64,000 nucleotides of DNA, from contig CAKONZ010000003.1 of assembly GCA_934098525.1 (NCBI GenBank), positions 69,579 through 133,578 of the forward strand. The letters are read 5' to 3'. A program made the translations under genes and the position numbers. Below the pieces are notes generated by a model. The model was not told the DNA's origin and ran no database searches. It was given only the letters and a program-made list of their open reading frames with translations. The stretch's first letter is position 1; each line of letters opens with the position of its first letter. This stretch comes from an uncultured Bacilli bacterium (GTDB lineage: Bacteria > Bacillota_I > Bacilli_A > RF39 > UBA660). Below, piece by piece: positions 7,192 to 64,000 of the stretch.

Positions 7192-7539
7192 ATGATAAGA
7201 AAAGAATCACGCAATGAAATGCGTTTAGTAAGACATGAGAGAATTAGAAAACAAATTAGTGGTACTAAAGATATACCAAGACTTAGTGTTTATCGTTCAA
7301 ATAAAAATATTTATGCTCAACTAATTGATGATGAAAATGGCGTTACTTTAGCTAGTGCATCTTCTTTAAATATGGAAGGAAACAACAAGGAAATAGCTGC
7401 AAAAGTAGGAGAAGCAATTGCTGATTTAGCAAAAAAGAAAAAAATTACAAAAGTTGTATTTGATCGTGGAGGATATCTTTATCATGGACGTGTAGCTGCT
7501 TTAGCAGATGCTGCTCGTTCTAAAGGTTTAGAATTCTAG
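7192..7539 (+). CDS. rplR: 50S ribosomal protein uL18
   Basis: Operon order. Confidence 0.92.
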
Positions 7540-7551
7540 TAGGAGGATAAC

Positions 7552-8061: not shown

Positions 8062-8504
8062 TGGAATTACATGAATTAAAGAAAAACGAAGGTGCTACTT
8101 TCTCTCGTAAAAGAGTTGGTCGTGGTACTGGTAGTGGTTTAGGAAAAACAAGTGGAAAAGGTCAAAAAGGACAAAAATCAAGAAGTGGAGCTTCAATTAA
8201 TCCAGTTTTTGAAGGTGGACAATCACCATTATATAGAAGACTACATAAAAGAGGATTTTCTAATGCTCAATTTAAAATTAGATATGCTTCAATAAATGTT
8301 GAAGATTTAAATGTATTTAATGATGGAGATATAGTTACTCCTGAATTATTAAAAGAAAATGGTATTGTTAAAAAACAATTATCAGGTATTAAAGTATTAG
8401 GAAATGGTACTTTAAATAAAAAATTAACAGTTAGAGCTCATAGATTTAGTTCTAGTGCTTTAAAGAAGATTGAAGAATCAGGAAGTAAAGCTGAGGTGAT
8501 TTAA
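8061..8504 (+). CDS. rplO: 50S ribosomal protein uL15; no rpmD (L30) gene lies between rpsE and rplO
   Basis: L15 glycine-rich N-terminus; directly abuts the rpsE stop. Confidence 0.93.
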
Positions 8505-8505
8505 G

Positions 8506-9783
8506 ATGTTTAAGATTCTTAAACAACTATTCACTAAAAAGAATAAGGATATAAGAAAAAGATTATATTTTACAATAGCAGTTTTAACAATATTTATTAT
8601 TGGTACTACTATTGAAGTTCCTGGCACACAATCTATTACTAAAAATTTAGGCTTTTTAGAGTTACTTAATGTTATGGGTGGAGGTGCCTTAAAGAATTTT
8701 TCTATATTTGCTTTAGGGGTTTCACCTTATATCACTGCTTCCATTATAATTCAATTATTAGAAATGGATATTATACCTTATTTTTCTGAACTTGCTAAAC
8801 AAGGACATACTGGACAACAAAAGTTAAATCAAATCACAAGATATGTTGGTATTGTATTTGCTTTTATTCAAGGTTATGCTATGAGTTATGCATTTCTTGG
8901 TAAAAATTTTGGTGTTTTAGGATATTTGGAAGTAGCATTAATAATGACTGCTGGTACAGCATTCTTATTATGGCTAGGTGATCAAGTAACACAAAAAGGT
9001 TTAGGTAATGGTACTTCATTAATTATTATGGCTGGTATTATTACTTCATTACCAAGTATGATGAAAACTGCTTTTTCTACTTTAGTTGATTTTGGTACTA
9101 CTAAAACAACAATTGTAGGATTATCTGCTTTTCTATTATTTATACTAGTTTATATATTGGTAATTATTGGTGTTATATATATAGAGGGTGCTGAAAGAAG
9201 AATTTCCATTCAGTATGCTAATAAATCTACTGCAAGTTTAGGTAAACAAACATATATGCCTATAAAGATTAACTCTGCAGGAGTTATGCCTGTTATATTT
9301 GCTTCAAGTTTATTAGCAGTTCCTGCTACAATTGCTCAATTTATTAATAAAGAAGGTTTTTCTAATTTTGTTGATAAATATTTAGATTATACTAAGCCAG
9401 TAGGTTTTATATTATTTGTAGTATTAATATTATTTTTTGCTTATTTTTATACATTTATTCAAATGAAACCTGATCAAATGGCAAAGAATTTACAAGATAA
9501 TGGTGGTTATGTTCCTGGAGTTAGACCTGGAGAGGCTACTACTAAGTATTTTTCACAAGTTTTAAGTAGATTAACAATTGTAGGTGCATTTTTCTTAACA
9601 ATTTTAGCTGCTTTGCCTATTTTAGTTAACGCATTTACTTCTTTACCATCTACAGTTTCTTTAGGTGGTACAGGGTTATTGATTGTTGTAGGTGTTGCTA
9701 TTGAAACTTATAAACAATTAGAAAGTAGTTTGTTGAGTAGAGAATACTCAGTTAATAAAAATAATAGAAGGGCGAGACGTTAA
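8506..9783 (+). CDS. secY: Protein translocase subunit SecY
   Basis: Ten-TM SecY-like translation; located after rplO. Confidence 0.94.
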   Translation: MFKILKQLFTKKNKDIRKRLYFTIAVLTIFIIGTTIEVPGTQSITKNLGFLELLNVMGGGALKNFSIFALGVSPYITASIIIQLLEMDIIPYFSELAKQGHTGQQKLNQITRYVGIVFAFIQGYAMSYAFLGKNFGVLGYLEVALIMTAGTAFLLWLGDQVTQKGLGNGTSLIIMAGIITSLPSMMKTAFSTLVDFGTTKTTIVGLSAFLLFILVYILVIIGVIYIEGAERRISIQYANKSTASLGKQTYMPIKINSAGVMPVIFASSLLAVPATIAQFINKEGFSNFVDKYLDYTKPVGFILFVVLILFFAYFYTFIQMKPDQMAKNLQDNGGYVPGVRPGEATTKYFSQVLSRLTIVGAFFLTILAALPILVNAFTSLPSTVSLGGTGLLIVVGVAIETYKQLESSLLSREYSVNKNNRRARR

Positions 9784-10415
9784 TGAAAAATATTATTTTA
9801 ATTGCCCCACCAGCTGCTGGTAAGGGAACTTTGGCTAATATGCTTGCTTCTGAGTATGGATATATTAGTTTATCTACTGGTGATATGCTAAGAGATTTAG
9901 CTAAACAAGATGAAAAATTAAGTGAAGAGTTAAAGACAGGTAAGTTAATTGATGATGATACTGTTTTTAAAGCTTTAGAAAATAAATTGGATTCATTAGG
10001 AGATACTCCATATATTTTGGATGGTTTTCCTAGAACAGTTAAACAAGCTGAAATGTATGATAATTTATTAAGTAACAAAAATAGAGATTTAGGTGTTGTT
10101 ATTTATTTAGATGTTGATAAAGAAGTTTTATTAAGTAGGGTTACTACAAGATTAGTATGTCCTGTTTGTAAAAGATCTTATTCTACAATAAATAAAGACC
10201 TTTTACCTAAAGATGGTAATTTGTGTTATGATTGTAATGTTTCTTTAATACAAAGATCTGATGATAAAAAGGAAACTTTTGAACAAAGATATGATGAATA
10301 TTTAGAGAAAACATCACCATTAATAAATTATTATGAATCTAAAAATTTATTATTTAAAATTAATGCTATTGATTCTAAAGAGACATTTAAAGAAGCTGTT
10401 AAGATAATTAAGTAA
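9783..10415 (+). CDS. adk: Adenylate kinase with zinc-binding lid
   Basis: GxPGAGKGT P-loop and CPVC...CYDC lid. Confidence 0.94.
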   Translation: MKNIILIAPPAAGKGTLANMLASEYGYISLSTGDMLRDLAKQDEKLSEELKTGKLIDDDTVFKALENKLDSLGDTPYILDGFPRTVKQAEMYDNLLSNKNRDLGVVIYLDVDKEVLLSRVTTRLVCPVCKRSYSTINKDLLPKDGNLCYDCNVSLIQRSDDKKETFEQRYDEYLEKTSPLINYYESKNLLFKINAIDSKETFKEAVKIIK

Positions 10416-10416
10416 G

Positions 10417-11190
10417 GTGATTGATTTGATTAGTATTAAGAGTGATAGAGAAGTTGAACTTTTAGCAATTGCAGGTAATATTGTTTATCAAACTCATCAA
10501 TATTTGAAGGACTTTATTAAACCTGGAATTACTACTAAAGAGTTAGATGATTTGGCTGAAAAGTTTATATTAAGTAAGAACGCTACTCCATCTTTTAAAG
10601 GGTATGAAGGTTTTCCTGCTAGTATATGTACTAGTATAAATGAGCAAGTTGTTCATGGTATTCCTGGAAATACCCGTTTAAAAGAAGGTGATATAATTTC
10701 TATTGATATTGGTGCTTGTTATAAAGGTTATCATGGTGATTCTGCTTGGACTTATCCAGTAGGAAAAGTTAGTGATGATTTAAAATATTTAATGAAACAT
10801 ACTGAGGAATCATTATTTAAAGGTTTAGAACAAGTAAAACCAGGAAATAGAATTGGTGATATTTCTTCTGCTATTGAAGAATGGGCAGAAAAATATAATT
10901 TGGGCGTTGTTAAAGAATTGGTTGGTCATGGAGTTGGTACCAGTGTCCATGAAGATCCTGATGTTCCTAATTATGGAAGAAAAATTACTGGTCCAAAATT
11001 AAAAAAAGGCATGGTTATTGCAATAGAACCTATGCTAACATTAGGTAGTCCAGATATTGTTGTTTTAGAAGACAATTGGACTATTGAAACAGAAGATTAT
11101 AGTCCATCAGCACATTTTGAACACACAGTAGTTGTTACTGATGATGGATACAAAATTTTGACAGGAGTGTTGATAAATGGCAAAGAGTGA
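10417..11190 (+). CDS. map: Methionine aminopeptidase type I
   Basis: MetAP fold residues; GTG start. Confidence 0.92.
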
Positions 11191-11392
11191 TGTAATCGAA
11201 GTAGAGGGAAAAGTTCTTGAAGTTATTCCAGGTGGAAGCTTCAAAGTTGAATTAAGTAATGGTCATATAATAGAAGCTCACGTTTCTGGTAAAATGCGAC
11301 TAAACTATATTCGTATTTCACCGGGTGATAAGGTTATGATCGAACTTTCTCCATATGATTTAACACGTGGGCGTATAACCTATAGAAAGTAG
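11177..11392 (+). CDS. infA: Translation initiation factor IF-1
   Basis: [11 protein letters not shown] motif; S1-like. Confidence 0.93.
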
Positions 11393-11402
11393 GAGGGAAA
11401 TT

Positions 11403-11516
11403 ATGAAAGTAAAACCATCTGTAAAGAAAATTTGTGCAAAATGTAGAATTATTAAACGTAAGGGAAAAATCATGGTAATTTGTGAAAATCCAAAACACAA
11501 ACAAACTCAAGGTTAA
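11403..11516 (+). CDS. rpmJ: 50S ribosomal protein bL36 (37 aa); absent from the ORF track
   Basis: Translated by eye: [37 protein letters not shown], zinc ribbon; GGAGGGAAA RBS. Confidence 0.9.
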
Positions 11517-11531
11517 TAAGGAGGAAAAGTA

Positions 11532-11897
11532 ATGGCACGTATTAAAGGTGTAGAAATACCAAATGAAAAAAAGATCAAAGTTTCATTAACTTATATTTAT
11601 GGTATTGGTCCAAAAACAGCAGAAAAGATTTTAAATGTTGTTAAAGTTGATGGAGAAAAAAGAACTAAAGATTTGTCTAATGAAGAATTAGGTTTAATTC
11701 GTGATGAATTAGCTAATTATGTTACTGAAGGTGATTTAAGAAGAGAAGTTTCTATGAACATTAAAACTAAGATGGAAATAGGTTCTTACCAAGGAATTCG
11801 TCATCGTAAAGGTTTACCAGTAAGAGGACAAAGAACAAATAGAAATGCCAGAACTCGTAAGGGTAAAGGTAAAGTTGTTGCTAATAAAAAGAAATAA
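11532..11897 (+). CDS. rpsM: 30S ribosomal protein uS13
   Basis: [10 protein letters not shown] start. Confidence 0.94.
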
Positions 11898-11918
11898 TAG
11901 GTTTAAGGAGGTTAAACT

Positions 11919-12302
11919 ATGGCTTATAAACAAAGAAAAAGAAAAGTTAAGAAAAACATTCCTGAAGGTGTTGCTCATATTCATGCAACCTTCAATAATA
12001 CAATAACTACTATTACTGATAAAGAAGGTAACGTTGTAGCATGGGCTTCTTCTGGAGCAATTGGTTTTAAAGGTAGTAAAAAATCTACTCCATTTGCAGC
12101 TGGTCAAGCTGCTGAAAAAGCTGGAAAAATGGCTTTTGATTCAGGTATGAGAAAAGTTGAAGTAGTTGTTAAGGGTGTTGGTCCAGGAAGAGAAACTGCT
12201 ATTAGATCATTACAAACTTCTGGGTTAGAGGTAACATCAATTACTGATGTAACTCCTATTCCACATAATGGATGTCGTCCACCAAAAAGACCACGTAATT
12301 AA
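11919..12302 (+). CDS. rpsK: 30S ribosomal protein uS11
   Basis: Conserved S11 sequence. Confidence 0.94.
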
Positions 12303-12321
12303 TGAAAAGGAGGGTAAGTAA

Positions 12322-13272
12322 ATGATTCAATTTGAAAAACCAAATTATAAAATAATTGACCGTGTAGAAAAGAGTAATTATGGTAAATTTGAACTTGAAC
12401 CTTTAGAAAGAGGTTTCGGTTATACTATTGGTAATGCATTAAGAAGAGTAATGTTATCTTCATTACCTGGTAGTGCTATTACTAGTGTTAAGATTGATGG
12501 AGTTTTACATGAATTTCAAACAATCGAAGGTGTAGTTGAGGATGTTACTTCAATTATACTTAATTTAAAGAATGTTGTTATTAAGAAACATTGTGAAGGT
12601 GAAAAAACTATTAGATTATCTGCTTCTGAAGAAGGAGTTGTAACAGCTGGAGATATTACTTGTGATGCTGATGTTGAAATAGTTAATAAAGATCAAGTTA
12701 TTGCTACTTTAGCAAAAGGTGGTAAGCTTGATATGGAAATGACAGTTTCTTCTGGAAGAGGATATGTTAGAGCTGAAGAAAATAAGAAATTATTATCTGA
12801 TAAAAAAATTGGAGTTATTGCAATTGATTCATTGTATTCTCCAATAGAAAGAGTTGCTTATGAGGTATTAGATGCACGTGTTGGTCAAAATGAAACTTAT
12901 GATAAATTAGTTATTGAAGTTTGGACTAATAGTTCTATTAAACCTGAAGAGGCAATTGCTTTAGCTAGTAGAATTTTAATTGAACATTTAGAAATAGTTG
13001 CTAGTTTAGATAATATTGCTAATGTTACTGGTATGATGGTTGAAAAAACTGAAGATCCAAAACAAAAAGCTTTAGAAACTGCAATTGAAGATTTAGATTT
13101 CTCTGTTCGTGCTTATAATTGTTTGAAAAGAGCAGGAATTCATACTTTACAAGATTTAGTTAATAAAACTGATGCTGATGTTATGAAAATTCGTAATTTG
13201 GGTAAAAAATCTTTGAAAGAAGTATTAGATAAGGTTAAAGAATTAGATTTAACTTTAAAAGATGAAGATTAG
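12322..13272 (+). CDS. rpoA: DNA-directed RNA polymerase alpha subunit
   Basis: NTD and CTD motifs; operon order. Confidence 0.94.
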   Translation: MIQFEKPNYKIIDRVEKSNYGKFELEPLERGFGYTIGNALRRVMLSSLPGSAITSVKIDGVLHEFQTIEGVVEDVTSIILNLKNVVIKKHCEGEKTIRLSASEEGVVTAGDITCDADVEIVNKDQVIATLAKGGKLDMEMTVSSGRGYVRAEENKKLLSDKKIGVIAIDSLYSPIERVAYEVLDARVGQNETYDKLVIEVWTNSSIKPEEAIALASRILIEHLEIVASLDNIANVTGMMVEKTEDPKQKALETAIEDLDFSVRAYNCLKRAGIHTLQDLVNKTDADVMKIRNLGKKSLKEVLDKVKELDLTLKDED

Positions 13273-13290
13273 TAAGAAGGAGTGAATATA

Positions 13291-13635
13291 ATGGCATATA
13301 GAAAATTAGGCGTTGATAATAAACATAGAAGAAGCATGCTTGCAAACTTAACTATTAGTCTTATTATGAACGAAAGTATTGAGACAACTGAGGCAAGAGC
13401 TAAAGAAGCTAGAAAAATGGTTGAAAAAATGATTACTTACGGAAAAAACGGTAGTTTAGTTTCAAGAAGAAAAGCGTTAGCTTTCTTAATGAATAACACT
13501 GCTGCTGTTAAGAAAGTATTTGAAGAATTAGCTCCTCGTTATAAAGACCGTAATGGTGGATATACAAGAATTTTAAAATTAGATGAAAGAAAAGGCGATG
13601 ATGCCTTAATGGTAATTTTAGAATTAGTTAAATAA
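13291..13635 (+). CDS. rplQ: 50S ribosomal protein bL17
   Basis: ATG at 13291 with GAAGGAG 8 nt upstream; the track's GTG at 13282 overlaps the RBS. Confidence 0.9.
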
Positions 13636-13659
13636 AAGGATGTTTTTACATCTTTTTTT
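13634..13659 (+). terminator. Intrinsic terminator after rplQ
   Basis: AAAAGGATGT-TTTT-ACATCTTTTT hairpin plus T-run. Confidence 0.55.
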
Positions 13660-13697
13660 AATTATGTAAAAATGATATAATTTTAGTGGGTGATGAT

Positions 13698-14456
13698 ATG
13701 AAGGCTTTGATTACAGGAGCTTCCTCTGGAATAGGAAGAGAAATGGCTATTTATTTAAGTGAATTAGGTTATGATTTGATATTGGTAGCAAGAGATAAGA
13801 CAGAACTTGAGTATTTACAAAAACAATTAAAAACTAATGTTAAGTTGATTATAGTGGATTTATCTGATGAAAAAAAGGTAAAAGATTTATATATGCTTGT
13901 TAAAAATGATGATATTGATATCTTAATTAATAATGCTGGTTTTGGATTGTTTGGAAATTATGATAATGTGGATTTACTTACTGAACTTAAAATGATTGAT
14001 GTTAATATTAAGGCTGTACATATTTTAACTAGAATGTTTTTAAAGAATATGACACAAAGAAATAGTGGATATATTTTAAATGTAGCTTCATCTGCAGGAC
14101 TTTTAAAAGGTGGACCTTTGATGAGTACATATTATGCTACTAAAAGTTATGTTGTTTCTTTTACTAATGCTATATATGAGGAATTAAGAAGAAATAAATC
14201 TAATGTTCATGTTTCTTGTTTATGTCCTGGACCTGTTAAGACTAATTTTAATAATGTTGCAGGAGTTAAATTTACTGTTAAAAGTTTAGATGCTAGGTAT
14301 GTAGCAAGATATGCAATTGATTGTATGTTTTCTAATAAACTTACAATAGTACCAGGAAATACTACTAAGATTGGTTTGTTTTTTTCTAGATTTTTAAGTA
14401 CTAAAACTTTACTTAAAATTACTTATAAATTTCAAAAGAAAAAAGATAGAAAATAA
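13698..14456 (+). CDS. Short-chain dehydrogenase/reductase (SDR) family oxidoreductase
   Basis: TGASSGIG Rossmann motif, NNAG, YxxxK; ATG at 13698 preferred over upstream GTG. Confidence 0.75.
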   Translation: MKALITGASSGIGREMAIYLSELGYDLILVARDKTELEYLQKQLKTNVKLIIVDLSDEKKVKDLYMLVKNDDIDILINNAGFGLFGNYDNVDLLTELKMIDVNIKAVHILTRMFLKNMTQRNSGYILNVASSAGLLKGGPLMSTYYATKSYVVSFTNAIYEELRRNKSNVHVSCLCPGPVKTNFNNVAGVKFTVKSLDARYVARYAIDCMFSNKLTIVPGNTTKIGLFFSRFLSTKTLLKITYKFQKKKDRK

Positions 14457-22203: not shown

Positions 22204-23955
22204 ATGAAAACTATTAATAATACAGATTTAACAATTAAAAATGTAGGTGAAAATGTAACTTTATATGGTTGGGTTCAAAAGATTAGAAATTTGGGAGGTT
22301 TATTATTTATTGATTTAAGAGATAGAAGTGGTATTATTCAATTAGCTATTAAACCTGATAATGATTATTATGATCTTGCTAATAGTTTGAAAAATGAGTA
22401 TGTAATTAAAGTTAATGGAATAGTTGTTGAGAGGGAAAATAAGAATAGTAATATTGAAACAGGTGATATTGAGATTAATGTTTTGTCTATTGAACAAATA
22501 AATAAAAGTGCTGAGTTACCTTTTAGTATTTCTGATGATACTACCGCTTTGGAGGATACAAGACTAAAATATAGATATCTTGATTTAAGAAGAAAAAATA
22601 TTCAAAGTAATTTAATTTTACGTCATAAGGTCAATATGATTGCAAGAAATTATTTATCTAGTTTAGGTTTTATCGAGATAGAAACTCCTATTTTGTGTAA
22701 GAGTACACCTGAGGGGGCTAGGGATTATTTGGTTCCTTCAAGAATGTTTAAGGGTAAGTTTTATGCTTTACCACAATCTCCACAAATATATAAACAATTA
22801 CTTATGATAGGTGGAATGGAGAAGTATTTTCAAATAGCTAGATGTTTTAGAGATGAGGATTTAAGAGCTGATAGACAACCTGAATTTACACAAATTGATA
22901 TCGAGATGAGCTTTGCTTCTGAAGAAGATATTTGGGGTGTTACTGAAGGTCTTATGGGCAAGATTTTTAAGGATTTAAAGAATGTTACATTAGATAAATT
23001 TCCTAGAGTACCTTATGTTGAGTGTATAGATAAGTATGGTAGTGATAAACCAGATACTCGCTTTGGCTGTGAGATTAATGATATAACAAGTATTTTTGGT
23101 AATACTTGCTTTACCATATTTAAAGATACAATAAATAATAATGGTATTATAAATGCAATTGTTATTAATAATAAGGCTGATAGTTTTTCTAGAAAAGATA
23201 TTGATAAATTAGGAGAGTTTGTTAAAATATATGGTGCTAAAGCATTAGCATATTTGAAGTTTGATGATAATGAATTCTCAGGCTCAATTGCTAAGTTTTT
23301 AACTGAATCTGAAAAGCAGGAACTTGTTGATAGGCTTGGTCTTTCTAATAATGATATAGTATTTGTTATTGCTGATAAGAAAAAGATTGTTAAACAAGCA
23401 CTTGGTGCTCTTCGTTTGAAACTTGGAAATGAGTTAAATTTAATTGATAAGTCTAAGTATAATTTTTTATGGGTTACTAATTTTCCAATGTTTGAGTATA
23501 GCGAAGAGGAACATAGATATGTAGCAGCTCATCATCCTTTTACTGCTCCGAATGAAGAAGATATTGATAAATTACTTACTGATAAAGAAAATTGTTATTC
23601 TAGAGCGTATGATTTAGTTCTTAATGGGTATGAATTGCTTAGTGGTTCGGTTCGTATTCATGATGAAGAAACACAAGCTAAAGTTTTTGAAGCTATTGGT
23701 ATGACTTTAGAAGAAGCAAAGGATAAATTTGGATTCTTTTTAGAGGCATTTAAATATGGGGCTCCTAATCATTGTGGTGTTGGTATTGGTTTAGAAAGAC
23801 TTGTTATGATTTTGGCAGATACTGATAATATAAGAGATGTAGTGGCTTTTCCTAAAACTGCAAGTGCTTCATGTTTAATGAGTGAATGTCCTAATGTTGT
23901 TAGTGATAAACAATTAAAAGATTTAGGTATTGAAACAAAAAAAATTGGAAGTTAA
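22204..23955 (+). CDS. aspS: Aspartate--tRNA ligase
   Basis: Class II aaRS motifs (FRDEDLRADRQPEFTQID, GLERL); ATG at 22204 after AAAGGAGGA; track start 22171 over-extended. Confidence 0.93.
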   Translation: MKTINNTDLTIKNVGENVTLYGWVQKIRNLGGLLFIDLRDRSGIIQLAIKPDNDYYDLANSLKNEYVIKVNGIVVERENKNSNIETGDIEINVLSIEQINKSAELPFSISDDTTALEDTRLKYRYLDLRRKNIQSNLILRHKVNMIARNYLSSLGFIEIETPILCKSTPEGARDYLVPSRMFKGKFYALPQSPQIYKQLLMIGGMEKYFQIARCFRDEDLRADRQPEFTQIDIEMSFASEEDIWGVTEGLMGKIFKDLKNVTLDKFPRVPYVECIDKYGSDKPDTRFGCEINDITSIFGNTCFTIFKDTINNNGIINAIVINNKADSFSRKDIDKLGEFVKIYGAKALAYLKFDDNEFSGSIAKFLTESEKQELVDRLGLSNNDIVFVIADKKKIVKQALGALRLKLGNELNLIDKSKYNFLWVTNFPMFEYSEEEHRYVAAHHPFTAPNEEDIDKLLTDKENCYSRAYDLVLNGYELLSGSVRIHDEETQAKVFEAIGMTLEEAKDKFGFFLEAFKYGAPNHCGVGIGLERLVMILADTDNIRDVVAFPKTASASCLMSECPNVVSDKQLKDLGIETKKIGS

Positions 23956-25328
23956 ATTCCAATTTTTCTTTTTATTACTCTTTCAATAATAGATATTTTA
24001 TTTAATTTTTCTAAGATCCTTTTTTCGATAAGTCTGATTCTTTCAGATGTTACGTTGAACATAAGACCTAGTTCGTTTAGTGTATATATTTTTTGAGTAT
24101 TGTAAAGTTTTGAAATGGTTTCAATATTATTTAGTTTTAATTCTTTACAAAAATCTTCAAAAGTAATAAATTCATTAAATTTTAGACCAAATCTTGCACA
24201 AATAATGATTTTTTCTTTATTATTTAGCGTTGATAAATATCTTTTAACATCATCTGTGTTTTCAAGTTCTTCTGCTATGTTGATTGTAGTATCTGGTATT
24301 TTATTATAATATATGTTTCCTTCTGTTTCAGTTTTGTTATTTTCTTTTGGTTTAATACTTTCATCAAGTGAACTTATTTTTATAAATTGGTTTGTTATTT
24401 TATTAGTTTTTATTTCAAAATTAACTTTTTTGTCTATTTCTTCATTACTTTTTATTTTGTTTCGTTTTTCATCTTTTAATTTTTCTATTAAGATAGATTC
24501 AGGTAGTTGTTTACTTGTTTGTAAATAGTATGCATCTTCTAGTTCTTTAATTTTATTGTTTATTTCTTGAGCATGAACTGGTATTCTTACTACACTTATT
24601 TGATTTTGTAGACCTCTTTTAATACTTTGTTTTATCCACCATGTAGCGTATGTTGCAAATCTAAAACCGTATTCACCATTATAATAATTAATTGCTTTAA
24701 TTAGTCCTAAATTTCCTTCTTCTATTAAATCTAATATTGATACTCTTGTGTTAATATAGCTTTTTGCTATTTTTACTACTAGTTTTAAATTTGCTTCTAT
24801 AAATTTATTTCTATATGTTAAATAATCAATTTGTATATCTAATTTTTTTAATAGGGTAGTGTTATTGGGATCAATATTTTTTAGCTGTTCTCTTTGTTTC
24901 TTTCTTTCACTTATATTGGTTGATGTTTTATTAATTTCAAATCCTAATTGTAGTAATTCATTATTTAGGGTGTTATTATTTATATTTAGTTCTTCTTTTT
25001 CTTGTAATAGTTTTTGGATTTTTTTTGAATATAATATTTCTTCTTCTTTTGTTAATAATTTTATTTTAGATGCTTCTTTATAATATGTTAATAGTAGATT
25101 ATTATAAATAGTTTTTTCATATTCTGTTTCTATTTCATTTTCATTTTTTATATTAAAAAAGAATGCTATTTTTTTAATATTATCAAAATTTTTTTTGTTT
25201 TTTTCAATATATTTATCAAAGTATTTATTTATTTTTTCTTTTCCGTATTTTGAAATTAATTTGTTGTAAAAGTTAATATCTATTTTTTCTAAGGTGTTTA
25301 TGGTATTTTCAAATTCTTTGTATTTCAT
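23952..25328 (-). CDS. RNA polymerase sigma factor, sigma-70 family (RpoD-like) with long non-conserved N-terminal and inter-domain regions
   Basis: Region 1.2 (LLTKEEEILYSKKIQ), region 2 (LDLIEEGNLGLIKAINYY...YATWWIKQSIKR), region 4 HTH (TLNELGLMFNVTSERIRLIEKRILEKL). Confidence 0.85.
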   Translation of the reverse strand: MKYKEFENTINTLEKIDINFYNKLISKYGKEKINKYFDKYIEKNKKNFDNIKKIAFFFNIKNENEIETEYEKTIYNNLLLTYYKEASKIKLLTKEEEILYSKKIQKLLQEKEELNINNNTLNNELLQLGFEINKTSTNISERKKQREQLKNIDPNNTTLLKKLDIQIDYLTYRNKFIEANLKLVVKIAKSYINTRVSILDLIEEGNLGLIKAINYYNGEYGFRFATYATWWIKQSIKRGLQNQISVVRIPVHAQEINNKIKELEDAYYLQTSKQLPESILIEKLKDEKRNKIKSNEEIDKKVNFEIKTNKITNQFIKISSLDESIKPKENNKTETEGNIYYNKIPDTTINIAEELENTDDVKRYLSTLNNKEKIIICARFGLKFNEFITFEDFCKELKLNNIETISKLYNTQKIYTLNELGLMFNVTSERIRLIEKRILEKLNKISIIERVIKRKIGI

Positions 25329-26243: not shown

Positions 26244-26323
26244 GATATTATGTTTTTTAATTCTTAAAATATATACTTTTAATATTTTTTGATATAGAAT
26301 ATAATTATAAATAGGAGGATGTT

Positions 26324-27007
26324 ATGAAGAATATAAGAAATGTATTATGGGGAGTAATTTTGGTTGTAGTAGGAGTTATTATAGCATGTAATTCTTTAGG
26401 TTTGACTAATATTGATATTTTATTTAAAGGATGGTGGACATTATTTATTATTGTTCCATGTTTTATTAATTTATTTAATGATAATGATAAAACTGGTAGT
26501 TTAATTGGAATATTAATAGGAGTAATGCTATTATTGGGAAGCAGAGGTATAATTAATTTTGATATGATATGGAAGTTAATATTACCAATTATTATTATAA
26601 TTGTAGGTTTGTCATTGATATTTAAAGATTTATTCAATTCTGAAATATCAAAGAAGATTTCTAGTTTAAATAAGAATAATAATAATGAATCATGTTGTGC
26701 TACTTTTTCTGGACAAAAGTTAAATTTTGGTAATAAGAAATTTACTGGTGCTAATTTAGATGCTATATTTGGTGGTGTTGAATATGATTTGAGAGATGCA
26801 AAAATAACTAGTGATGTTGTTATTAATACTTCTTCTATATTTGGTGGTATAGATATTTTTGTTCCTGATGATGTCAATGTAGAAGTTAGATCTACTTCTA
26901 TGTTTGGAGGTGTTGATAATAAGAAAAAGGCTACTTCCTCAGAAGATAAAAAATATACAGTATATATTAATGCTTTTTGTATATTTGGTGGTGTTGATAT
27001 AAAATGA
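26324..27007 (+). CDS. LiaF-like membrane protein (DUF2154-type C-terminal domain)
   Basis: N-terminal TM helices; C-terminal repeated IFGG(V/I)DI beta-strand motifs. Confidence 0.5.
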   Translation: MKNIRNVLWGVILVVVGVIIACNSLGLTNIDILFKGWWTLFIIVPCFINLFNDNDKTGSLIGILIGVMLLLGSRGIINFDMIWKLILPIIIIIVGLSLIFKDLFNSEISKKISSLNKNNNNESCCATFSGQKLNFGNKKFTGANLDAIFGGVEYDLRDAKITSDVVINTSSIFGGIDIFVPDDVNVEVRSTSMFGGVDNKKKATSSEDKKYTVYINAFCIFGGVDIK

Positions 27008-27822
27008 CAAGTTTTCAAAGAGCAATAAAATATGTTTCTATATGTTTTGCCTTTTTTCTAGTATTTGTAATTATTACTTCTATATTTGGGGGAATTTACG
27101 CTGTATTTAGTATATTTGATAGTGGTAAGAGTGAACCTGAGTATGAGGTTGAAAATATTAGTTGTAGTCTTAATGGTGATATTAAATCTTTAGATATTGA
27201 CACTAATGTTGTTGATTTGAAGTTATTAATTGGAGATTCTTTTGATGTAAAAACTAATAACAAAAATATAAATTGTAAACAGGATGGTAGTGTTTTAAAG
27301 ATAAAGGAAAGTGGTAGTGGTGTTGTAAATTCTAAAAATAAAGTTTTAGAGGTTAGAATACCCAAAGATTATTTGTTTGAATATGTTGATATTGATTCTG
27401 ATGTAGGAAAAATTTATGTAGAGAGTGTAAATTCTAAGATATTAAATTTTGATTTAGGAGCAGGAGATGCTAATATTGATTATATAAATTCTGGTGATGT
27501 TGATGTGGAGACTGGTGCTGGTAATTTTTATATTAATTCAGGAACTATTGGTAATTTAGAACTTGATCAAGGTGTTGGTAAAGTTTATGTTAATGCTTAT
27601 TTAAGAGGAACAAGTAAGATAGAAGGCGGTGTAGGTAAACTTGATATTAATTTACTTGGAGGTAAAGATAATTATAGAATAGTTGTTGAAAAAGGTGTTG
27701 GTTCTATTAAAGTGGATGGCAATGCTGTTGGTAATGAAAATATGATTGGTTCAGGAAATAGTAAGGTTAATATTGAGGGTGGAGTTGGAGAGATTAATAT
27801 TAATTTTAAGAGTAATGATTGA
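27004..27822 (+). CDS. DUF4097 (toast-rack) family protein with N-terminal TM anchor
   Basis: Repeated G-x-G-K-(I/V)-x-V beta-solenoid-like repeats; overlaps upstream gene by 4 nt. Confidence 0.5.
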   Translation: MTSFQRAIKYVSICFAFFLVFVIITSIFGGIYAVFSIFDSGKSEPEYEVENISCSLNGDIKSLDIDTNVVDLKLLIGDSFDVKTNNKNINCKQDGSVLKIKESGSGVVNSKNKVLEVRIPKDYLFEYVDIDSDVGKIYVESVNSKILNFDLGAGDANIDYINSGDVDVETGAGNFYINSGTIGNLELDQGVGKVYVNAYLRGTSKIEGGVGKLDINLLGGKDNYRIVVEKGVGSIKVDGNAVGNENMIGSGNSKVNIEGGVGEININFKSND

Positions 27823-58060: not shown

Positions 58061-59001
58061 TTATCTTCCTAAATAATCTATTGTGATTGTAACAAGTGAG
58101 TTTGTGAAGTATGAACTAGATTCTATATTATTAATATCAGGTGTATTTAGATAAACTATTTCTGGACTTAAATTTACTAATTCATAAGCATTTGATATAT
58201 CATTTACAGATATTATACCGCTTGCTACAATTTGTTTTGTTTGTTTATCATATATCCATTCACTAGCTCCAATATAAATATTATCTGTTCCTACTAATCT
58301 AAACCCTAAAGCTACAAAATTTTTGTTTGGATCAAAAGTTGTAGATTCACCATTAGTATGAGCTGATACAATAAAACTTACTTTGTAATATCCAATTGTA
58401 TTAAACTGAATGGTTTTTTCATTAGTATCTAATGTTACAATTCCAGTTATGTCTAATTCCTTTCTGTTTATTGGTAATCTTTCATCTTGTGGTATTGGAA
58501 TTCCTTGTTCTGATTCATTTGCGTTAAATGTTACTAAATATGCAGATCTGTTAAGTATTGGTCCAGTAGGCCCGGTTGGTCCGGTTGGTCCAGTTGGTCC
58601 TATTTCACCTTGTTCTCCTGTTAAACCAATTGGTCCTTGTAAACCTTGATCACCTTTTGGACCTTTTATTTCTCCTACGCTTGTCCAATTGTTATCTTTT
58701 TCGTTCCATACATATAGTTCTGTTCCTACAAGATATGAATCTCCTACATTTCCAGTTTGATGATCATTAGTTAAATCTTGATAAGTATCATATTTTCCTA
58801 GTATGGTAACACTTGTTCCATCATTACCTTTTGGTATTATAAAATCTAATATATGATTATTACCTGTTTTTGTCTCTATTACTTGGGCTTCTGTTCCTGG
58901 GTTACCTGTTGCTGTTGTTCTTATTGTGATTGTATCTGCTGCACCAGTAGGTCCTGCTGGCCCAGTTGGTCCAGTAGGCCCGGTAGGTCCGGTCTGTGCA
59001 T
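58061..59001 (-). CDS. Collagen-like (GPT)n protein with BclA-like C-terminal domain; open frame 59014..58061 has no ATG/GTG/TTG, and the only nearby ATG (59001) is in another frame
   Basis: Hand translation: YAQTGPTGPTGPTGPAGPTG... second GxY run GPKGDQGLQGPIGLTGEQGEIGPTGPTGPTGPTGP, then ~190-aa C-terminal domain with FNTIGYYKVSFIVSAHT resembling BclA C-terminal jelly-roll. Confidence 0.55.
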
Positions 59002-59065
59002 AACTAAATTTCTTCTAAATAGAGTAATCGTAAATATAACCCCATATTCCTTTATAAATACATTA

Positions 59066-59094
59066 AAAATAACCTTTTCTGAAAAGGTTATTTT
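59066..59094 (-). terminator. Strong hairpin terminator separating the upstream four-gene block from the collagen-like gene
   Basis: AATAACCTTTT-CAG-AAAAGGTTATT perfect stem flanked by A/T runs. Confidence 0.65.
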
Positions 59095-59287
59095 ATTTTA
59101 ATTAATACAATATTTCATTTTTCATATATTTTTTTATTTTCATAATCTTGTTTTAATTCTTCTGACAATTTTTATTTTAGATTAATTGTATTTTTTAATT
59201 TCTACATATTATTTTATATTTTTTTGTATCGGTAATTTAATATTATCAATTATCATCTTTTAATCTATCATCGTATCAAAATTAGTA

Positions 59288-60337
59288 TTATGTTTCTCTT
59301 TGCGAAACATAATGTTCTGTTAATGATATTTGTATTATCTTGTTATCTTCAGAGTAAATTGTTGCTTCTATGTTTTCTTTTACAAATTTAAAATCTAAAT
59401 CTTTATCAGTGATAAATCCATAGCTTAATAATTTTTTACTTGCATTGTGTTTATCATCATTTATTTTCACTGTATAAAAAGAATTAACATTATTTTTTTC
59501 TAAAATAGTAATTACATCTAACTTTGGTAATGTACTGCCTAGAAAATTACTAGAAAAAGATAATTGAAGAAACTCATTAGAATAGCACTTATTATTAAAA
59601 CCAAAATCAAATGTATTAACTTCTTTAAAATTATCTTTAGTTAATTGCTTTAATGAATCCTCATCTAAACTCATTCCTAATTTGTATTTAAAATTGTCAT
59701 TCATTATATCTTCAAATTTCGAAGAATTAATAAACGAATTACTTAAAATACTTATTAAGTGGTATACATAAGAGTAATCATTTAAATCAAAAGTCAAATA
59801 ATTTAATGTATTATTAAAATAATTTAAATTCAAAGATGGGAATTTTTTAATTAAACTTATAACTCGTTCCTTATTGCTTAAATAATCTTCCATAATATTT
59901 TCATCTACATAAGGTTTTTCAAATTCACCACAAGTTAAAATAATTCTATATAAGTTTTTTGCGTCCAATACTATCTTAGTATTTGGCTCTTTAATATTTA
60001 AATATTTTTTTACACTATTTTCTATTTCTGCTAAAAATAATTTATTGGAATTTACATATATTATCTCATCATTTGTATCAGAATTAATATAAGGGACATC
60101 GATTCCATTAATATTTAAAGTGTTTGAGTAATTGCCATTAAAGTAAAAATTGCTATAAAGAGCTTTAATTATTGCATCTAGTATTTGTTTTGAATATTTA
60201 TGATCTTTGTATAGTATCATCTGATCTCTTAAATATTTTTTATTTTCTTCTATATCATTAGTCAATTTAGACAAAATCTCTTTTATAATTTCCTCACACT
60301 CTATATTATATTCTTTTTTTTGATTTGCTTCATTCAT
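59288..60337 (-). CDS. Hypothetical protein (349 aa)
   Basis: ORF; acidic, no motif recognised. Confidence 0.45.
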   Translation of the reverse strand: MNEANQKKEYNIECEEIIKEILSKLTNDIEENKKYLRDQMILYKDHKYSKQILDAIIKALYSNFYFNGNYSNTLNINGIDVPYINSDTNDEIIYVNSNKLFLAEIENSVKKYLNIKEPNTKIVLDAKNLYRIILTCGEFEKPYVDENIMEDYLSNKERVISLIKKFPSLNLNYFNNTLNYLTFDLNDYSYVYHLISILSNSFINSSKFEDIMNDNFKYKLGMSLDEDSLKQLTKDNFKEVNTFDFGFNNKCYSNEFLQLSFSSNFLGSTLPKLDVITILEKNNVNSFYTVKINDDKHNASKKLLSYGFITDKDLDFKFVKENIEATIYSEDNKIIQISLTEHYVSQRET

Positions 60338-60412
60338 AAAATATACTATTTCTCCTTTGAAATTAAATTAGTTCTAAAATACATTTTTACAATTATTATA
60401 AATTTATTTTTG

Positions 60413-61453
60413 CTATCTTCTTATGCCACCAGTAGTTTGTTGTTGAGTAGATTCATATTCCATATTTTGAATTTGTTGTACTGCATTCATAAAATCCTGT
60501 TGTAATTTAGGCGTTGTTAAGTAAGCTGATACTTTTTGGTAATTATTGATAATATAATTAGGATCATTGTTGGCAATGAAGTTAGCAGCCAACTCCCTTT
60601 CAATTTTATTAATTAAATCTCCTTGTATTTGTAAATTTCCAGAAAATTGTTGTCCATTTTGCATAATAATATTTTGTGGATTTCCTTGTAATTGACTTCC
60701 ATAACCGGCTATTAATAATTTATCAATGGAATATATTTTCTCAAGTTCAAGCATAAAATCTTCAAACTTTCCTTCATTGCCTGGGAAGACTTCATACATA
60801 GCTTTTAATTGTTCTCGTCCATCTTTTCTGTATCCCAGTGCCAATAATTGATTTAATGGTATTCCCAAAGAAGAAGATAACAACATTAATATATTGCCAT
60901 TTAATTGATATTCAGATAATGGACTGTATGGTGTGTGTTCAGAATGACCTCTAACAGTGTTCGGTTGTTGTCTGTATTGTATGTTTGTACCATTAGATAC
61001 GTGATATAAAATCTCAGCTGTAAATTGTGTTGCACCCTCTGTTAAAAACATACCAGTTTTACCATTATAAAAGGAACACTCTTCGTGATCTTCAACCATT
61101 CTAGTTTGTAAGGCGTGAGTTAATTCGTGAAAAAAATAGAGTTTATTTGTTTCATAATCCATATTTAAATTCATTTCAATTCTATCTTCATTAGTTCTAC
61201 CGTGAATTCCTCCCAAATTTGTTTCATTAACTGTTTTCAGTAGCTGTGGCAATGATTTAGCTACTTCAACAGGATCAAGATATAATCCGCCTTCATAATC
61301 AAGTTGGCCTATAGAGTCAATATAATCTGCTATTAAAACAAAATACTTGTCTGGAATGTTATGTGGTGTATTTCTATATTGCATTTTTATCGAATCAACT
61401 AATCCGCTGTTAATTAATTCTTGTTCTCTTTCTATTCTATTCATAAAATTCAC
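60413..61453 (-). CDS. HExxH-motif protein (putative zinc metallopeptidase-like) with Q/N-rich C-terminus
   Basis: FFHELTHALQ at 61115-61129, downstream Glu-rich EDHEE and EGATQFTAE; no signal peptide. Confidence 0.45.
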   Translation of the reverse strand: MNFMNRIEREQELINSGLVDSIKMQYRNTPHNIPDKYFVLIADYIDSIGQLDYEGGLYLDPVEVAKSLPQLLKTVNETNLGGIHGRTNEDRIEMNLNMDYETNKLYFFHELTHALQTRMVEDHEECSFYNGKTGMFLTEGATQFTAEILYHVSNGTNIQYRQQPNTVRGHSEHTPYSPLSEYQLNGNILMLLSSSLGIPLNQLLALGYRKDGREQLKAMYEVFPGNEGKFEDFMLELEKIYSIDKLLIAGYGSQLQGNPQNIIMQNGQQFSGNLQIQGDLINKIERELAANFIANNDPNYIINNYQKVSAYLTTPKLQQDFMNAVQQIQNMEYESTQQQTTGGIRR

Positions 61454-61487
61454 CTCTCAAAATTTATAGATATTTTTGTTTATAATT

Positions 61488-62429
61488 TTATAAAAATAAA
61501 ACTATAATAGAAAATACAATTAATATAATTATTTCTGGTAAAATAAATTTTTTGTATTTATTGTAATAAGAAATAATTTTTTCTCTGTTTTTTAAATTAT
61601 CAACATTTTTTCCTATTAAAATTTCGCTTGTTTGTTTGTATTGTTCTACATCATCTTTATAAATACTTTGATAATTTTTATCATCATAACCAGCGTATAC
61701 TTTTTCTGGAATTATATTAGAATATAGTCCATCTAATATTGAACTTCCAATCAACGTTCCTAATAGGTAAGATATTAATAATACAACAATGGGGAATGCT
61801 ATATATGTTGATGAAAACATCATTCTAATAGTGGGGACAAATAAACATAAAATACAAATTATAATTGCTGGAATAAATGCGATTGTAAATCCAACTATAT
61901 TTTTAATTTTACTTCTGTTTTTTATGGTTGAATCGTATCTTACAGGTGCGTTTAGTATTTTTGATTTTATTAATTCATAAACATCGTCAATTTTTTTATA
62001 ATTGCTATTTAATGATATTTCTATATCTGCTTTTCCTTCAAAAATCCACATATTAATGTTTTCTCTAAAATAATCTTCACCATTTCCAATTTTTTTAATA
62101 CTATATGATACTCCAAAGAAAACATATATCCTTTTTATTTCTTCTAATCTTTGATAATAAATAGAAATAAAATTATTATAATTATCAAATTTTATGGTAG
62201 TATCATCATAGAAATCAACTTCAAATGTTAAAGTGCTTCCCTCATCTTTATAGTCCCAATTTCTATCAGACCATTCTAATATAGAATTTTTTCTTTCCTG
62301 TATCTCTGATGTTTTCTTATATTCTAAAATTTTTTCTTGCATCTTAGAGAAAATATCAAACAAGTCCTCCGATTTAATTATTTTATTTGCGACTTTTATG
62401 GTATCGTTATACATTTTTTTCATCTCCAT
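61488..62429 (-). CDS. Hypothetical membrane protein (313 aa; soluble N-terminal domain plus 3-4 TM helices)
   Basis: Hydrophobic segments in the C-terminal half. Confidence 0.45.
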   Translation of the reverse strand: MEMKKMYNDTIKVANKIIKSEDLFDIFSKMQEKILEYKKTSEIQERKNSILEWSDRNWDYKDEGSTLTFEVDFYDDTTIKFDNYNNFISIYYQRLEEIKRIYVFFGVSYSIKKIGNGEDYFRENINMWIFEGKADIEISLNSNYKKIDDVYELIKSKILNAPVRYDSTIKNRSKIKNIVGFTIAFIPAIIICILCLFVPTIRMMFSSTYIAFPIVVLLISYLLGTLIGSSILDGLYSNIIPEKVYAGYDDKNYQSIYKDDVEQYKQTSEILIGKNVDNLKNREKIISYYNKYKKFILPEIIILIVFSIIVLFL

Positions 62430-63972
62430 TAAGCGTTGCTTTATCTACTAAGTTTAACTGGTTAATTTTTTTAAACTGACTATAATAGGCCAAACCGCCA
62501 AAACTATCTTTGTTGGTTTCTAGTTTAATATTTAATTTTTTACAAGTTTCTTTTACTAAATTCATTATTTTTCCTTGTGTAATAGGTTCTACAAATACTT
62601 GATTTGGATTATAGCTTATCAAATCTGCTATTGTAGCAACATTTTCATATGGTAAATCAATTATTTTTTTTACAATATCATATATCGTTGTGTTCAAATA
62701 TCCATCATTGTTTCCTATAACTTCTTCAATAATTATTTTCAATCTTTCGTCAGTTATTTTATCATCAAAATTATCATTGTTTAAATCATTTCTTGTTTCT
62801 GAATATAAAACACCATTTTCCATATCTTTTTTAAAATTGGGATAGTATAAATCATCTAATATATCCTTATTTTCAGTTAAACATTTTTTAATACATTCGA
62901 TAGCAAATTCTTTTGTACCACTTGGTTCAGGAATATATGGTCTTTTTCCAAATCTTTCTTCATATAACTTACAATATTTATCAAATTCTTTTTCTTCACC
63001 TGATAACTCTGGTGTTGGAGTATTTATAAACATTTCCATATATGATTTTACTTTATCATCACTAACTTTTATATATATTGTATTTTGAGGTAATCCCATT
63101 ATAGTACTTTCATCAAATTTTGATTTGATTTTAATACCTTGCTCTTCTAATTTTTTGAAAGTATCTATAGAAATAGATAATACTTTATCTGTATCCACAT
63201 CAACTAATTGGGATATAGTAAATTCGGTTCCATTAGGCAGCGATTTTATTTTTTCTACAAGTAAGTTTATTGTATCATTATCATTTGTTACCTCTATAAC
63301 ATTTGCATTAATGATTAATTCTTTTATTTCGTTCATAAAGTTTTTACAAAATTCTCCTATTTCACCTACAACTTGCCCATCAATTGAAATTATTAATTTA
63401 CCATATTTAATGGTAATTGTTCTAGCACCACCACCGACAAGACTATTATTTAACATAAATTTTTTGTTTTGTGATAATGAATATTTTATTAAAACTTCAA
63501 GATTTTTATTTATAAATTCTTTAATCTTTTTCAATACATCAAAATTAATTCTATATTCCTTATTTTCTATTTTTATAGAATATTTTTCAATATCCAAAAT
63601 CTCAATATCAATTCTATTAGTGTGATAATTAGGATGTGTCATTGGCAAAACTGAACCACTTTTAAGTTTAATTGAAAAATCATTTGATGGAGAAATAAAC
63701 TCTTCCATTTGGTATAAATCTTCTTGACAATGTTTTAGCTGGTCATATTCCTTTTTTGTAATAGTAATTTTATCATCATTTATTACATAAAAATTATCAT
63801 TAAATATTTTTTTAAATTCTTCATCTTCTTTTTGCCATTTTTCTTTTAATATAATTTGTTCTTCTTCTGGTTTCCCATCAAGTTCTTCTTTTTCTATTTC
63901 AAGTATCTTATTATCTATACTATTAGTATAAGAGTCAATATCATTAATATCTAAATTATTATTTTCTTGCAT
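62407..63972 (-). CDS. Hypothetical protein (at least 521 aa; frame stays open upstream of the ATG to the window edge)
   Basis: ORF; no recognisable motif; overlaps downstream gene by 23 nt. Confidence 0.45.
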   Translation of the reverse strand: MQENNNLDINDIDSYTNSIDNKILEIEKEELDGKPEEEQIILKEKWQKEDEEFKKIFNDNFYVINDDKITITKKEYDQLKHCQEDLYQMEEFISPSNDFSIKLKSGSVLPMTHPNYHTNRIDIEILDIEKYSIKIENKEYRINFDVLKKIKEFINKNLEVLIKYSLSQNKKFMLNNSLVGGGARTITIKYGKLIISIDGQVVGEIGEFCKNFMNEIKELIINANVIEVTNDNDTINLLVEKIKSLPNGTEFTISQLVDVDTDKVLSISIDTFKKLEEQGIKIKSKFDESTIMGLPQNTIYIKVSDDKVKSYMEMFINTPTPELSGEEKEFDKYCKLYEERFGKRPYIPEPSGTKEFAIECIKKCLTENKDILDDLYYPNFKKDMENGVLYSETRNDLNNDNFDDKITDERLKIIIEEVIGNNDGYLNTTIYDIVKKIIDLPYENVATIADLISYNPNQVFVEPITQGKIMNLVKETCKKLNIKLETNKDSFGGLAYYSQFKKINQLNLVDKATLNGDEKNV

Positions 63973-64000
63973 AGATATTTCTAAACTCTTTAGATTTTTA

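Follow-up and report, generated by a model that had tools for sequence, protein, structure and literature searches.

The subject of this analysis is a tight block of four minus-strand open reading frames (ORFs) at the right-hand end of the window, together with the collagen-like gene that follows it. By the window we mean the whole 64,000-nucleotide stretch of contig CAKONZ010000003.1, from an uncultured Bacilli bacterium. In order of transcription, the ORFs encode a large protein (g620), a membrane protein, a protein with a HExxH zinc-binding motif, and a 349-aa protein (g349). They are separated by a 23-nt overlap and by gaps of 34 and 75 nt, and both the positions and the spacing given for them in a first-pass annotation of this DNA were reproduced (Table 1). 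Because stop codons are frequent in this DNA of 20–30% GC, and because three of the four ORFs have conserved homologues elsewhere, we do not consider them to be products of chance.

The 521-aa ORF that opens the block (62407-63972, minus strand) is truncated at the window edge, as that annotation had suspected. A 100% identical protein, P0121, is 620 aa long, and contig L055, which is identical to the window across 4.9 kb, places the start of the g620 gene ~269 nt beyond base 64000. In the HExxH gene, the GTG falls within the ribosome-binding site (RBS) GAGAGGTGA and all gene calls give 343 aa; the downstream ATG is most likely the start. The hairpin that closes the block has a 13-bp stem with a folding energy (dG) of -10.4 kcal/mol and a U run after the stem. 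It had been described as a very strong terminator. The hairpin and the U run exist, but the structure is AU-rich and of moderate strength, and it was not called by a consensus terminator scan.

When compared with Pfam, NCBIfam, PADLOC and PHROGs, none of the four proteins matched a family at its cut-off, in agreement with their earlier description as unrecognisable. Sub-threshold matches of the block proteins to Coat_F, MreB-like_C and DUF2207_C were taken as noise. PDB sequence searches, with single sequences and with profiles, returned nothing meaningful, and by base composition the block is not clearly distinct from its flanks. The first-pass annotation had also allowed that these might be ordinary M48/M50 genes without conserved synteny. 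The family scans gave no match to M48 or M50 housekeeping peptidases; the HExxH family is tiny, its context is mobile, and its partners recur with it, as described below.

Table 1. Coordinates of the block, the predicted element end and the adjoining collagen-like gene in the window.
Feature	Position	Strand	Comment
g620 gene, 3' 1.6 kb	62407..64000	-	mosaic protein, 620 aa at full length
Membrane-protein gene	61488..62429	-	313 aa as ORF, probably 308 aa from the ATG at 62414
Predicted HExxH zinc metallopeptidase gene	60413..61453	-	346-aa ORF; 343 aa from the ATG at 61444
HELTH codons, H109-E-L-T-H113	61115..61129	-	predicted zinc-binding and catalytic motif
Codon of predicted third ligand E139 (TEGATQ)	61037-61039	-	His-to-Glu spacing of 26 residues, read off the sequence
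g349 gene	59288..60337	-	lineage-specific orphan, 349 aa, final cargo gene
Intrinsic-terminator-like hairpin	59066..59094	-	closes the cargo operon; from RNA folding
Predicted attR, right element end	58992..59045	-	element-side arm ...CTCTATTTAGAAGAAATTTAGTTATGC, then the collagen-repeat junction
Start-less 3' portion of the collagen-like gene (GPT repeats, BclA_C-type C-terminus)	58061..58997	-	host DNA, outside the element

The collagen-like gene and the right end of the proposed element

The collagen-like ORF at 58061-58997 has no in-frame ATG, GTG or TTG upstream of its first GPT repeats. An ATG at 58998-59000 is out of frame and lies within the arm of the putative element described below. 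An intact member of the same collagen family, found in locus L079, is 313 aa long and shows an N-terminal domain of ~28 aa that is absent from the start-less ORF.

Related loci, L067-69, contain the membrane-protein, HExxH and g349 genes together with a g620 variant that has an internal deletion. This cargo has 97% nucleotide identity to the window, and its proteins are 95–98.5% identical to those of the window. Immediately to its left, on the other strand, is a gene for a TnpX-like large serine recombinase of 680 aa, whose domains are Resolvase, Recombinase, Zn_ribbon_recom and DUF4368. A 62-aa ORF with no family match precedes the L067 recombinase gene, and a 67-aa ORF overlaps its 3' end. 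This second ORF has a good RBS, an ATG, and a 25-aa N-terminus followed by GPT repeats, MNGKYSKKIECILEQGKKCKEKLGVMGPTGPMGPTGPSGGPIGPTGATGPTGPTG, after which it runs into junk sequence. To the right of g349, L067 has a hairpin, ~85 nt of further sequence, and then an ORF that starts inside GPT repeats without a start codon and has a BclA_C end. BclA_C and Collagen matches in Pfam were obtained for the equivalent ORFs of L054 and L067.

A 32-nt inverted repeat (pair I5, AGGTCCAACAGGCCGATGTAATAAATCATCTA and TAGATGATTTATTTTATCGGGGAACTGGACCT) is located exactly at the two L067 junctions. Its inverted arms are centred on ATCGA, with TAGATGATTTATT..ATCG and CGAT..AATAAATCATCTA on the element side and GGTCCA...TGGACC on the host side. 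When the two L067 halves are joined in silico at the shared CG they stay in frame (GGC CG/G GGA ACT, the stroke marking the join), an outcome that has a one-in-three probability by accident. The right arm is common to L067, L074 and L076 up to ...TTTTATCG (arm ...TAGATGATTTATTTTATCG), after which the three loci continue into three different collagen-repeat flanks. A shared right arm followed by differing flanks locates the element boundary and shows that the insertions into collagen-repeat DNA were independent of one another.

The high identity between the window and L067 stops inside the hairpin, and the 168 nt that follow align at ~74%. The window has its own version of the arm, 58998-59021, which is identical in nine contigs; past ...ATGCACAGAC there are three different continuations. 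In L067, the arm that partners the counterpart of the window arm adjoins the recombinase gene. Judged by these sequence comparisons, the window holds the predicted right end of an element of the L067 family and the 3' half of the gene that it interrupts. The first-pass annotation had described the block as lying upstream of the collagen gene. Rather than a chromosomal operon in that position, we propose that it is probably the cargo operon at the right-hand end of a mobile element, integrated by site-specific recombination, which lies inside, and interrupts, a collagen-like (BclA_C-type) surface-protein gene, and that its zincin core set serves the element. Such a reading also corrects the annotation, as a collagen gene and a mystery operon become a split gene and an inserted element, both of which gene callers misdescribe.

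Several further observations concern the same region. Short ORFs of 64-82 aa on the strand opposite the collagen repeats (58410-58649, 58576-58770 and 58853-59101) are spurious. Locus L054 (5006-6979) is 99.9% identical to the window through g349 and diverges within the collagen repeats; an AIPR (abortive infection) gene comes right after its short BclA_C ORF. Many contigs of the window lineage break inside g620 or at the operator described below, which suggests strain-level rearrangement or repeat-driven assembly breaks.

The region to the left of the block can be followed in L055. Past the position equivalent to base 64000, this contig has genes for an 89-aa XRE protein and a 101-aa protein. 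A perfect palindrome, TAGTCTTGCAAGACTA, precedes the 101-aa gene, and near copies of it (TAGTCTTGCAATACTA and TAGTCTTGCG) precede the XRE gene; together these sites occupy L055 735-775 and 1146-1170, ~740-1170 nt beyond 64000. From their sequence and placement, these palindromes are likely to be operators. The exact palindrome 28-mer occurs in 7 metagenome contigs, several of which have it adjoining collagen-like genes. Further left in L055 are leftward genes homologous to an SSB-containing operon of loci L064 and L075.

Other loci have the same ends around different contents. L074 has an L067-type arm and, at its right, the GT2-TPR glycosyltransferase gene that in the window comes after the collagen gene; its cargo is wholly different. 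That cargo (3508-12797) includes a 974-aa ResIII/DEAD helicase, which matches PbeA and type IV restriction models, and two transglutaminase-like (papain-fold) proteins. L074 and L076 (2649-7601) share the right arm, the operator and the 101-aa gene, and their cargoes are unrelated. The cargo position looks like a swappable slot.

A number of points weigh against the interpretation of the block as element cargo, or against parts of it. The left end of the window's own element lies beyond base 64000, and the 1.9 kb of L055 past that base shows the XRE gene, the 101-aa gene and the leftward genes resembling the SSB operon, with no recombinase. The recombinase and the 5' gene half are extrapolated for the window, because they are seen only in relatives whose arm is ~74% identical. 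Neither an empty site nor a circular junction was found in the fetched loci or in IMG/VR, where the predicted attB, GGTCCAACAGGCCG(A/G)GGAACTGGACC, and attP, TAGATGATTTATTTTATCGATGTAATAAATCATCTA, were both unmatched. Of the 179 inverted repeats in this AT-rich stretch, four are longer than the one at the junctions, whose weight comes from its position. The L067 junctions read CGA and CGG, and given this difference the L067 copy may be immobile. With respect to the cargo, many HExxH loci have no partner detectable at the BLAST level. The peptidase gene is not beside the repressor gene, unlike in classical immR-immA pairs, and lies in an operon downstream of the operators. Every fold match of the HExxH protein has E>0.07, and none of its links to Peptidase_M78 or DUF6782 reaches a curated cut-off. 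We also considered a further protein, P0122, as a route to the left end of the window lineage, and rejected it as it sits in an unrelated locus.

The HExxH peptidase family and its partners

Homologues of the HExxH protein number 476 at E<=1e-3 in a collection of 5.8 billion proteins. All are unnamed, and all come from metagenomes or metagenome-assembled genomes under labels such as Bacilli, Clostridia or Mycoplasmatota. When 1.84 billion representative proteins were searched with a profile, only 119 matched, 35 of them at E<=1e-30. The family occurs only in uncultured gut Firmicutes and, despite being small and restricted, its members are 55-86% identical across different classes. Searches of 50,697 phage and 72,556 plasmid records by tblastn with the HExxH protein and g620 found no match, and the family was not found in IMG/VR. 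In the absence of matches from these collections, an origin from a prophage or a known plasmid was dropped.

The HELTH codons lie where the first-pass annotation had placed them. Residues H109, E110, H113, E139 and E147 are invariant in an alignment of 33 sequences (A1), and E139 follows the second His by 26 residues, which is the gluzincin spacing. An AlphaFold (AF2) model of the protein has one compact fold, with a pLDDT of 92.6 and a pTM of 0.89. Surveying the PDB and viral structures with Foldseek returned no match at E<0.001. The best PDB folds were PprI/IrrE, an M1-type lanthipeptide peptidase and an M60-like enzyme, and the best viral models were IrrE, SprT-like and 'metalloprotease' cores (prob 0.92-0.97 over ~90-130 residues). 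The C-terminal 180 residues matched nothing.

Among the 33 close members, sub-threshold Pfam matches were to DUF6055 (19/33), DUF6782 (13/33) and Peptidase_M78 (6/33). In more remote relatives, again below threshold, they were to DUF6782 in 18 of 32 (best E 6.6e-6) and to Peptidase_M78 in 14 of 32 (best E 5.5e-5). The window protein itself does not match Peptidase_M78 (PF06114); the best E among its close relatives is 0.021, and all fall below the 22-bit cut-off. We place the protein in an unclassified branch of the zincin clan, with an intact predicted active site, whose nearest but remote relatives are ImmA/IrrE and DUF6782; by the Pfam criterion it is outside PF06114.

The HExxH protein has no signal peptide, as the first-pass annotation had stated, and is cytoplasmic. 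Several homologues, in at least 7 contexts, have a C-terminal transmembrane (TM) helix of their own. Two longer proteins, P0166 (639 aa) and P0173 (668 aa), have a second, different small HExxH...EG zincin domain N-terminal to the conserved peptidase domain. They had been considered as fusions of the membrane protein to the peptidase (Rosetta-stone evidence), and this was rejected as the extra part is the second small zincin domain and not the TM protein.

The membrane protein opens with ~175 aa of soluble domain, continues through two TM helices and a conserved loop, and closes with a further TM helix at its C-terminus (three predicted TM helices in all). An alignment of 9 homologues gives the loop motif P..kYAGY...Y.DDV..Y...SE...GK.

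The g620 protein is a mosaic of five modules. A helical bundle at the N-terminus is accompanied by an alpha/beta module resembling Mago-nashi, by two modules of winged-helix-like type, and by a short helical segment that we term module D (EFDKYCKLYEERFGKRPYIPEPSGTKEF...). Its homologues retain differing subsets of these five. The AF2 model (pLDDT 74) shows helical bundles. In Foldseek comparisons the Mago match has a TMt of 0.6 (prob 1.0, E 0.02), and the winged-helix-like modules resemble LP1413, a nucleic-acid-binding protein of SCCmec (TMt 0.5). Weak WXG100-like matches were observed in g620 homologues. In L026-30, module D is a standalone 79-aa gene starting 3 nt after the HExxH stop codon. 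Genes like g620 also occur without the peptidase, again adjoining a Mob_Pre gene and a serine recombinase gene.

The last gene, g349, has just 2 matches in 5.8 billion sequences, itself and a relative of 79% identity, and it was not found in any other HExxH locus examined. We infer that it is an add-on of this lineage. The first-pass annotation had described the four genes as a tight block, and a fixed four-gene operon is rejected here, given the orphan g349 and a mosaic g620 that occurs without the peptidase.

To assess synteny, the four proteins were compared by tblastn with 53 loci that surround HExxH homologues, and all neighbouring genes were then clustered. In 16 loci the gene next upstream of the peptidase gene encodes a membrane-protein homologue, and 14 loci have a g620-like gene or a module D gene nearby. 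An XRE-type helix-turn-helix gene belonging to one cluster occurs in at least 9 HExxH loci, in the same operon region and never directly adjacent to the peptidase gene. Mob_Pre relaxases are present in 10 loci and serine recombinases in 7. In a Clostridia clade the order is XRE (divergent), TM protein, HExxH protein (~500 aa), the 79-aa module D gene, a 136-aa gene and Mob_Pre, and a tyrosine integrase gene adjoins tRNA-Leu; this locus is a tRNA-Leu integrative mobilizable element with a Mob_Pre relaxase. Next to the TM-HExxH genes, a Mob_Pre relaxase is seen only in this clade; none was found in the window, L055 or L067-69. On mobile elements, the peptidase thus recurs together with the membrane protein and module D; the four-gene block itself is not conserved. 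The suggestion of an uncharacterised module made of a zincin and a membrane partner is thus borne out, as no family claims the genes and these components recur together in other genomes.

Collagen-like genes adjoin HExxH genes in three separate lineages, and most HExxH loci have no collagen gene within ~8 kb. In L051 (7054-8950) and in L052, the gene for a distant HExxH homologue (31% identity) is followed directly by an intact collagen-like gene of 203 aa, which has an RBS and an ATG of its own. In L064 a 267-aa collagen gene (13604-14407) is 2.5 kb from the HExxH gene, on the opposite strand. For the adjacency of peptidase and collagen genes in three lineages, a preference in integration site is not a full explanation.

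These results describe a compact, very well modelled and previously unannotated zincin family (pLDDT 93) that has no Pfam family and no PDB fold match, has clear partner proteins, and is restricted to the mobile elements of uncultured Firmicutes from human and animal guts. The family offers a tractable target for understanding the role of proteases on mobile elements in these organisms.

Possible roles of the cargo

The cargo core comprises the soluble zincin, the 3-TM protein and module D, probably expressed downstream of the XRE repressor gene with its palindromic operators. Considering its partner membrane protein and the TM anchors of some homologues, we infer that the peptidase would be an active protease at the cytoplasmic face of the membrane and would act for the element rather than for the host. 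The partner would hold it at the membrane, a task that falls in some homologues to a C-terminal anchor of the peptidase itself. An ImmA/IrrE-style protease of this kind could cut the XRE repressor or module D upon activation of the element or upon its entry into a cell. We rank an ImmA/IrrE-like regulatory protease as the most likely role, as it would fit the identity of the nearest relatives, the association with an XRE gene and the tight coupling to a small partner. An effector role in defence or anti-defence would be nearly as likely. The swappable slot, the AIPR, Schlafen, HEPN and nSTAND neighbours, and the SSB operon make those two readings close rivals.

In the defence reading, the block would be an anti-phage or anti-invader abortive-infection cassette occupying a swappable slot, in which the peptidase would sense infection or be activated by it and the membrane protein would act as effector, or with these two roles exchanged. 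Between a left module (the operator and 101-aa gene, or the recombinase) and the right arm, L074 and L076 hold unrelated cassettes, one of which has the ResIII/DEAD helicase that matches PbeA and type IV restriction models. The AIPR gene follows the block in L054, and Schlafen/AlbA_2, HEPN and nSTAND3 genes neighbour the HExxH set on Clostridia elements. A position in a cargo slot is, however, circumstantial. None of the four proteins matched any of the 5027 models of PADLOC-DB v2 (0 families at E<=1), and a defence cassette leaves the XRE/operator control and the module D partner unexplained. We regard this reading as unlikely, although it deserves to be kept in view.

Alternatively, the genes could form an establishment or anti-defence set comparable to leading-region genes. 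They would be expressed in a burst on entry, before the XRE protein accumulates, and the zincin would degrade defence proteins of the host. Zygotic induction arises from repressor-controlled operons. The related elements L064 and L075 have the SSB operon divergent from the XRE gene, and L064 has a second weak zincin match (WLM) downstream. The alternative cargo of L074, a helicase with two papain-fold proteins, is a repertoire typical of the 'polyvalent proteins' of conjugative elements. Set against these likenesses, neither a relaxase nor an oriT was seen in the window lineage, the family is missing from the plasmid, phage and IMG/VR collections searched above, and membrane tethering would be unexpected for an enzyme directed at cytosolic restriction systems. 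We consider an establishment set rather improbable.

A developmental role for the integration itself is a doubtful prospect. The element could be of the skin/SPbeta/gin type, lying in an exosporium BclA-type gene of a spore-forming gut Bacilli; the mother cell would excise it by means of the serine recombinase, so that the filament is made only in sporulation, and the cargo would be a switch or a conflict system. Should excision prove developmental, a surface-filament gene would join the short list of genes rebuilt during sporulation. Ten window proteins scanned for sporulation functions gave only sub-threshold matches of the SleB, CwlD and SpoVE types and no decisive sporulation gene. A sigma-K-like -10 sequence (CATATAATA) upstream of the 5' collagen fragment of L067 was not used as evidence: it is also a perfect sigma-A TATAAT and lacks the -35 AC.

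The spore-coat idea of the first-pass annotation, for which we found no support, has a counterpart in which the peptidase is a processing protease for BclA-type filaments of an exosporium or surface nap, and the other genes are assembly factors. The proximity of collagen-like and HExxH genes in three lineages, including the intact gene of L051 and L052, and the GT2-TPR gene after the window collagen gene would be consistent with such a function. The peptidase has no signal peptide, though, and its family is carried on relaxase- and integrase-bearing elements, in most cases with no collagen gene inside ~8 kb. In the window, which has no decisive sporulation gene, the adjacency is explained by integration into repeat DNA. 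We judge filament processing to be very unlikely.

Least probable of all, to the point of being nearly negligible, is the first idea of that annotation, a metallopeptidase toxin that is secreted or acts by contact and has the membrane protein as its partner for immunity or export. The domain mosaic of g620 resembles polymorphic toxins and the WXG100-like matches of its homologues would fit, but a signal peptide, LXG or Rhs delivery domains and nearby secretion-system genes are all missing, and of the components the peptidase varies least instead of most.

Elsewhere in the window, a ribosomal-protein/secY/adk/map/infA/rpoA cluster at 1-13650 identifies it as chromosomal DNA of a low-GC (~24%) Firmicute. 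A 458-aa sigma-70 family protein with a long N-terminal extension is encoded at 23952-25328, alone on the minus strand among plus-strand genes; its best NCBIfam match is MzaA, the MZA anti-phage sigma factor, at 172 bits against a cut-off of 800. Two ORFs on opposite strands, 26305-27018 (minus) and 26324-27007 (plus), overlap almost completely, and one of them must be spurious; the minus-strand ORF contains repeated STPPNI.

Comparison with known systems

Among known peptidases, the HExxH protein is most like the ImmA/IrrE (PprI), Peptidase_M78/COG2856, DUF6782 and DUF6055 group. These are small soluble gluzincins with a HExxH motif whose second His is followed ~26-27 residues later by a Glu ligand. 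Their genes lie on phages and integrative elements, close to those for XRE-type repressors, and IrrE/PprI provides the best fold matches for the catalytic core, at E>0.07. The differences are considerable. The HExxH protein is below threshold throughout, forms one compact fold of 343 aa with an unmatched C-terminal 180 residues, and belongs to a family far more conserved than the ImmA proteins (55-86% identity across classes). Its gene is not adjacent to the repressor gene and has a membrane partner or, in some homologues, an anchor of its own. A likeness in mode of action only can be drawn with BlaR1/MecR1. The BlaR1-BlaI pair illustrates how a zinc protease at the cytoplasmic membrane face might switch off a small repressor that binds DNA. 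BlaR1 combines protease and membrane sensor in a single M56 polypeptide, and no sequence or fold similarity to the proteins described here was detected.

As a mobile element, the L067 family resembles Tn4451/Tn4453, which has the TnpX recombinase and the TnpZ Mob_Pre relaxase. The two have in common arms in inverted repeat, cargo between the mobility genes, and a large serine recombinase that carries a DUF4368 tail and is encoded at one end of the element. In each, the identical core is very short and contains GA/CG; in the Clostridia clade, Mob_Pre relaxases adjoin the TM-HExxH genes. Elements of the Tn4451 type use a serine integrase that recombines 2-bp identical sequences and targets GA with low specificity, and they carry a MobV relaxase (PMC5704250). 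The present family was, in contrast, met only in collagen-repeat coding DNA, with three flanks, and the window lineage has no visible relaxase. With its plasmid-borne relatives, the L067-type recombinase shares just 29-37% identity. If such recombinases recognise DNA that codes for collagen repeats, this would be a new class of target.

The skin element in sigK, SPbeta in spsM and gin in gerE are each removed by a serine recombinase that restores a split spore gene (PMC4191935, PMC5595907). The L067 family shares with them the end-located large serine recombinase and a split gene of the spore-envelope type, and precise excision would restore its frame. It differs in its target. The known targets are sigK, spsM, spoVFB, spoVR and gerE, with no collagen or BclA-type gene among them (PMC4191935, PMC5595907), and neither those two papers nor a full-text literature search gave an intervening element in a collagen or bclA gene. 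Taken as a whole, the proposed element combines a serine recombinase, a new type of target and a new zincin family.

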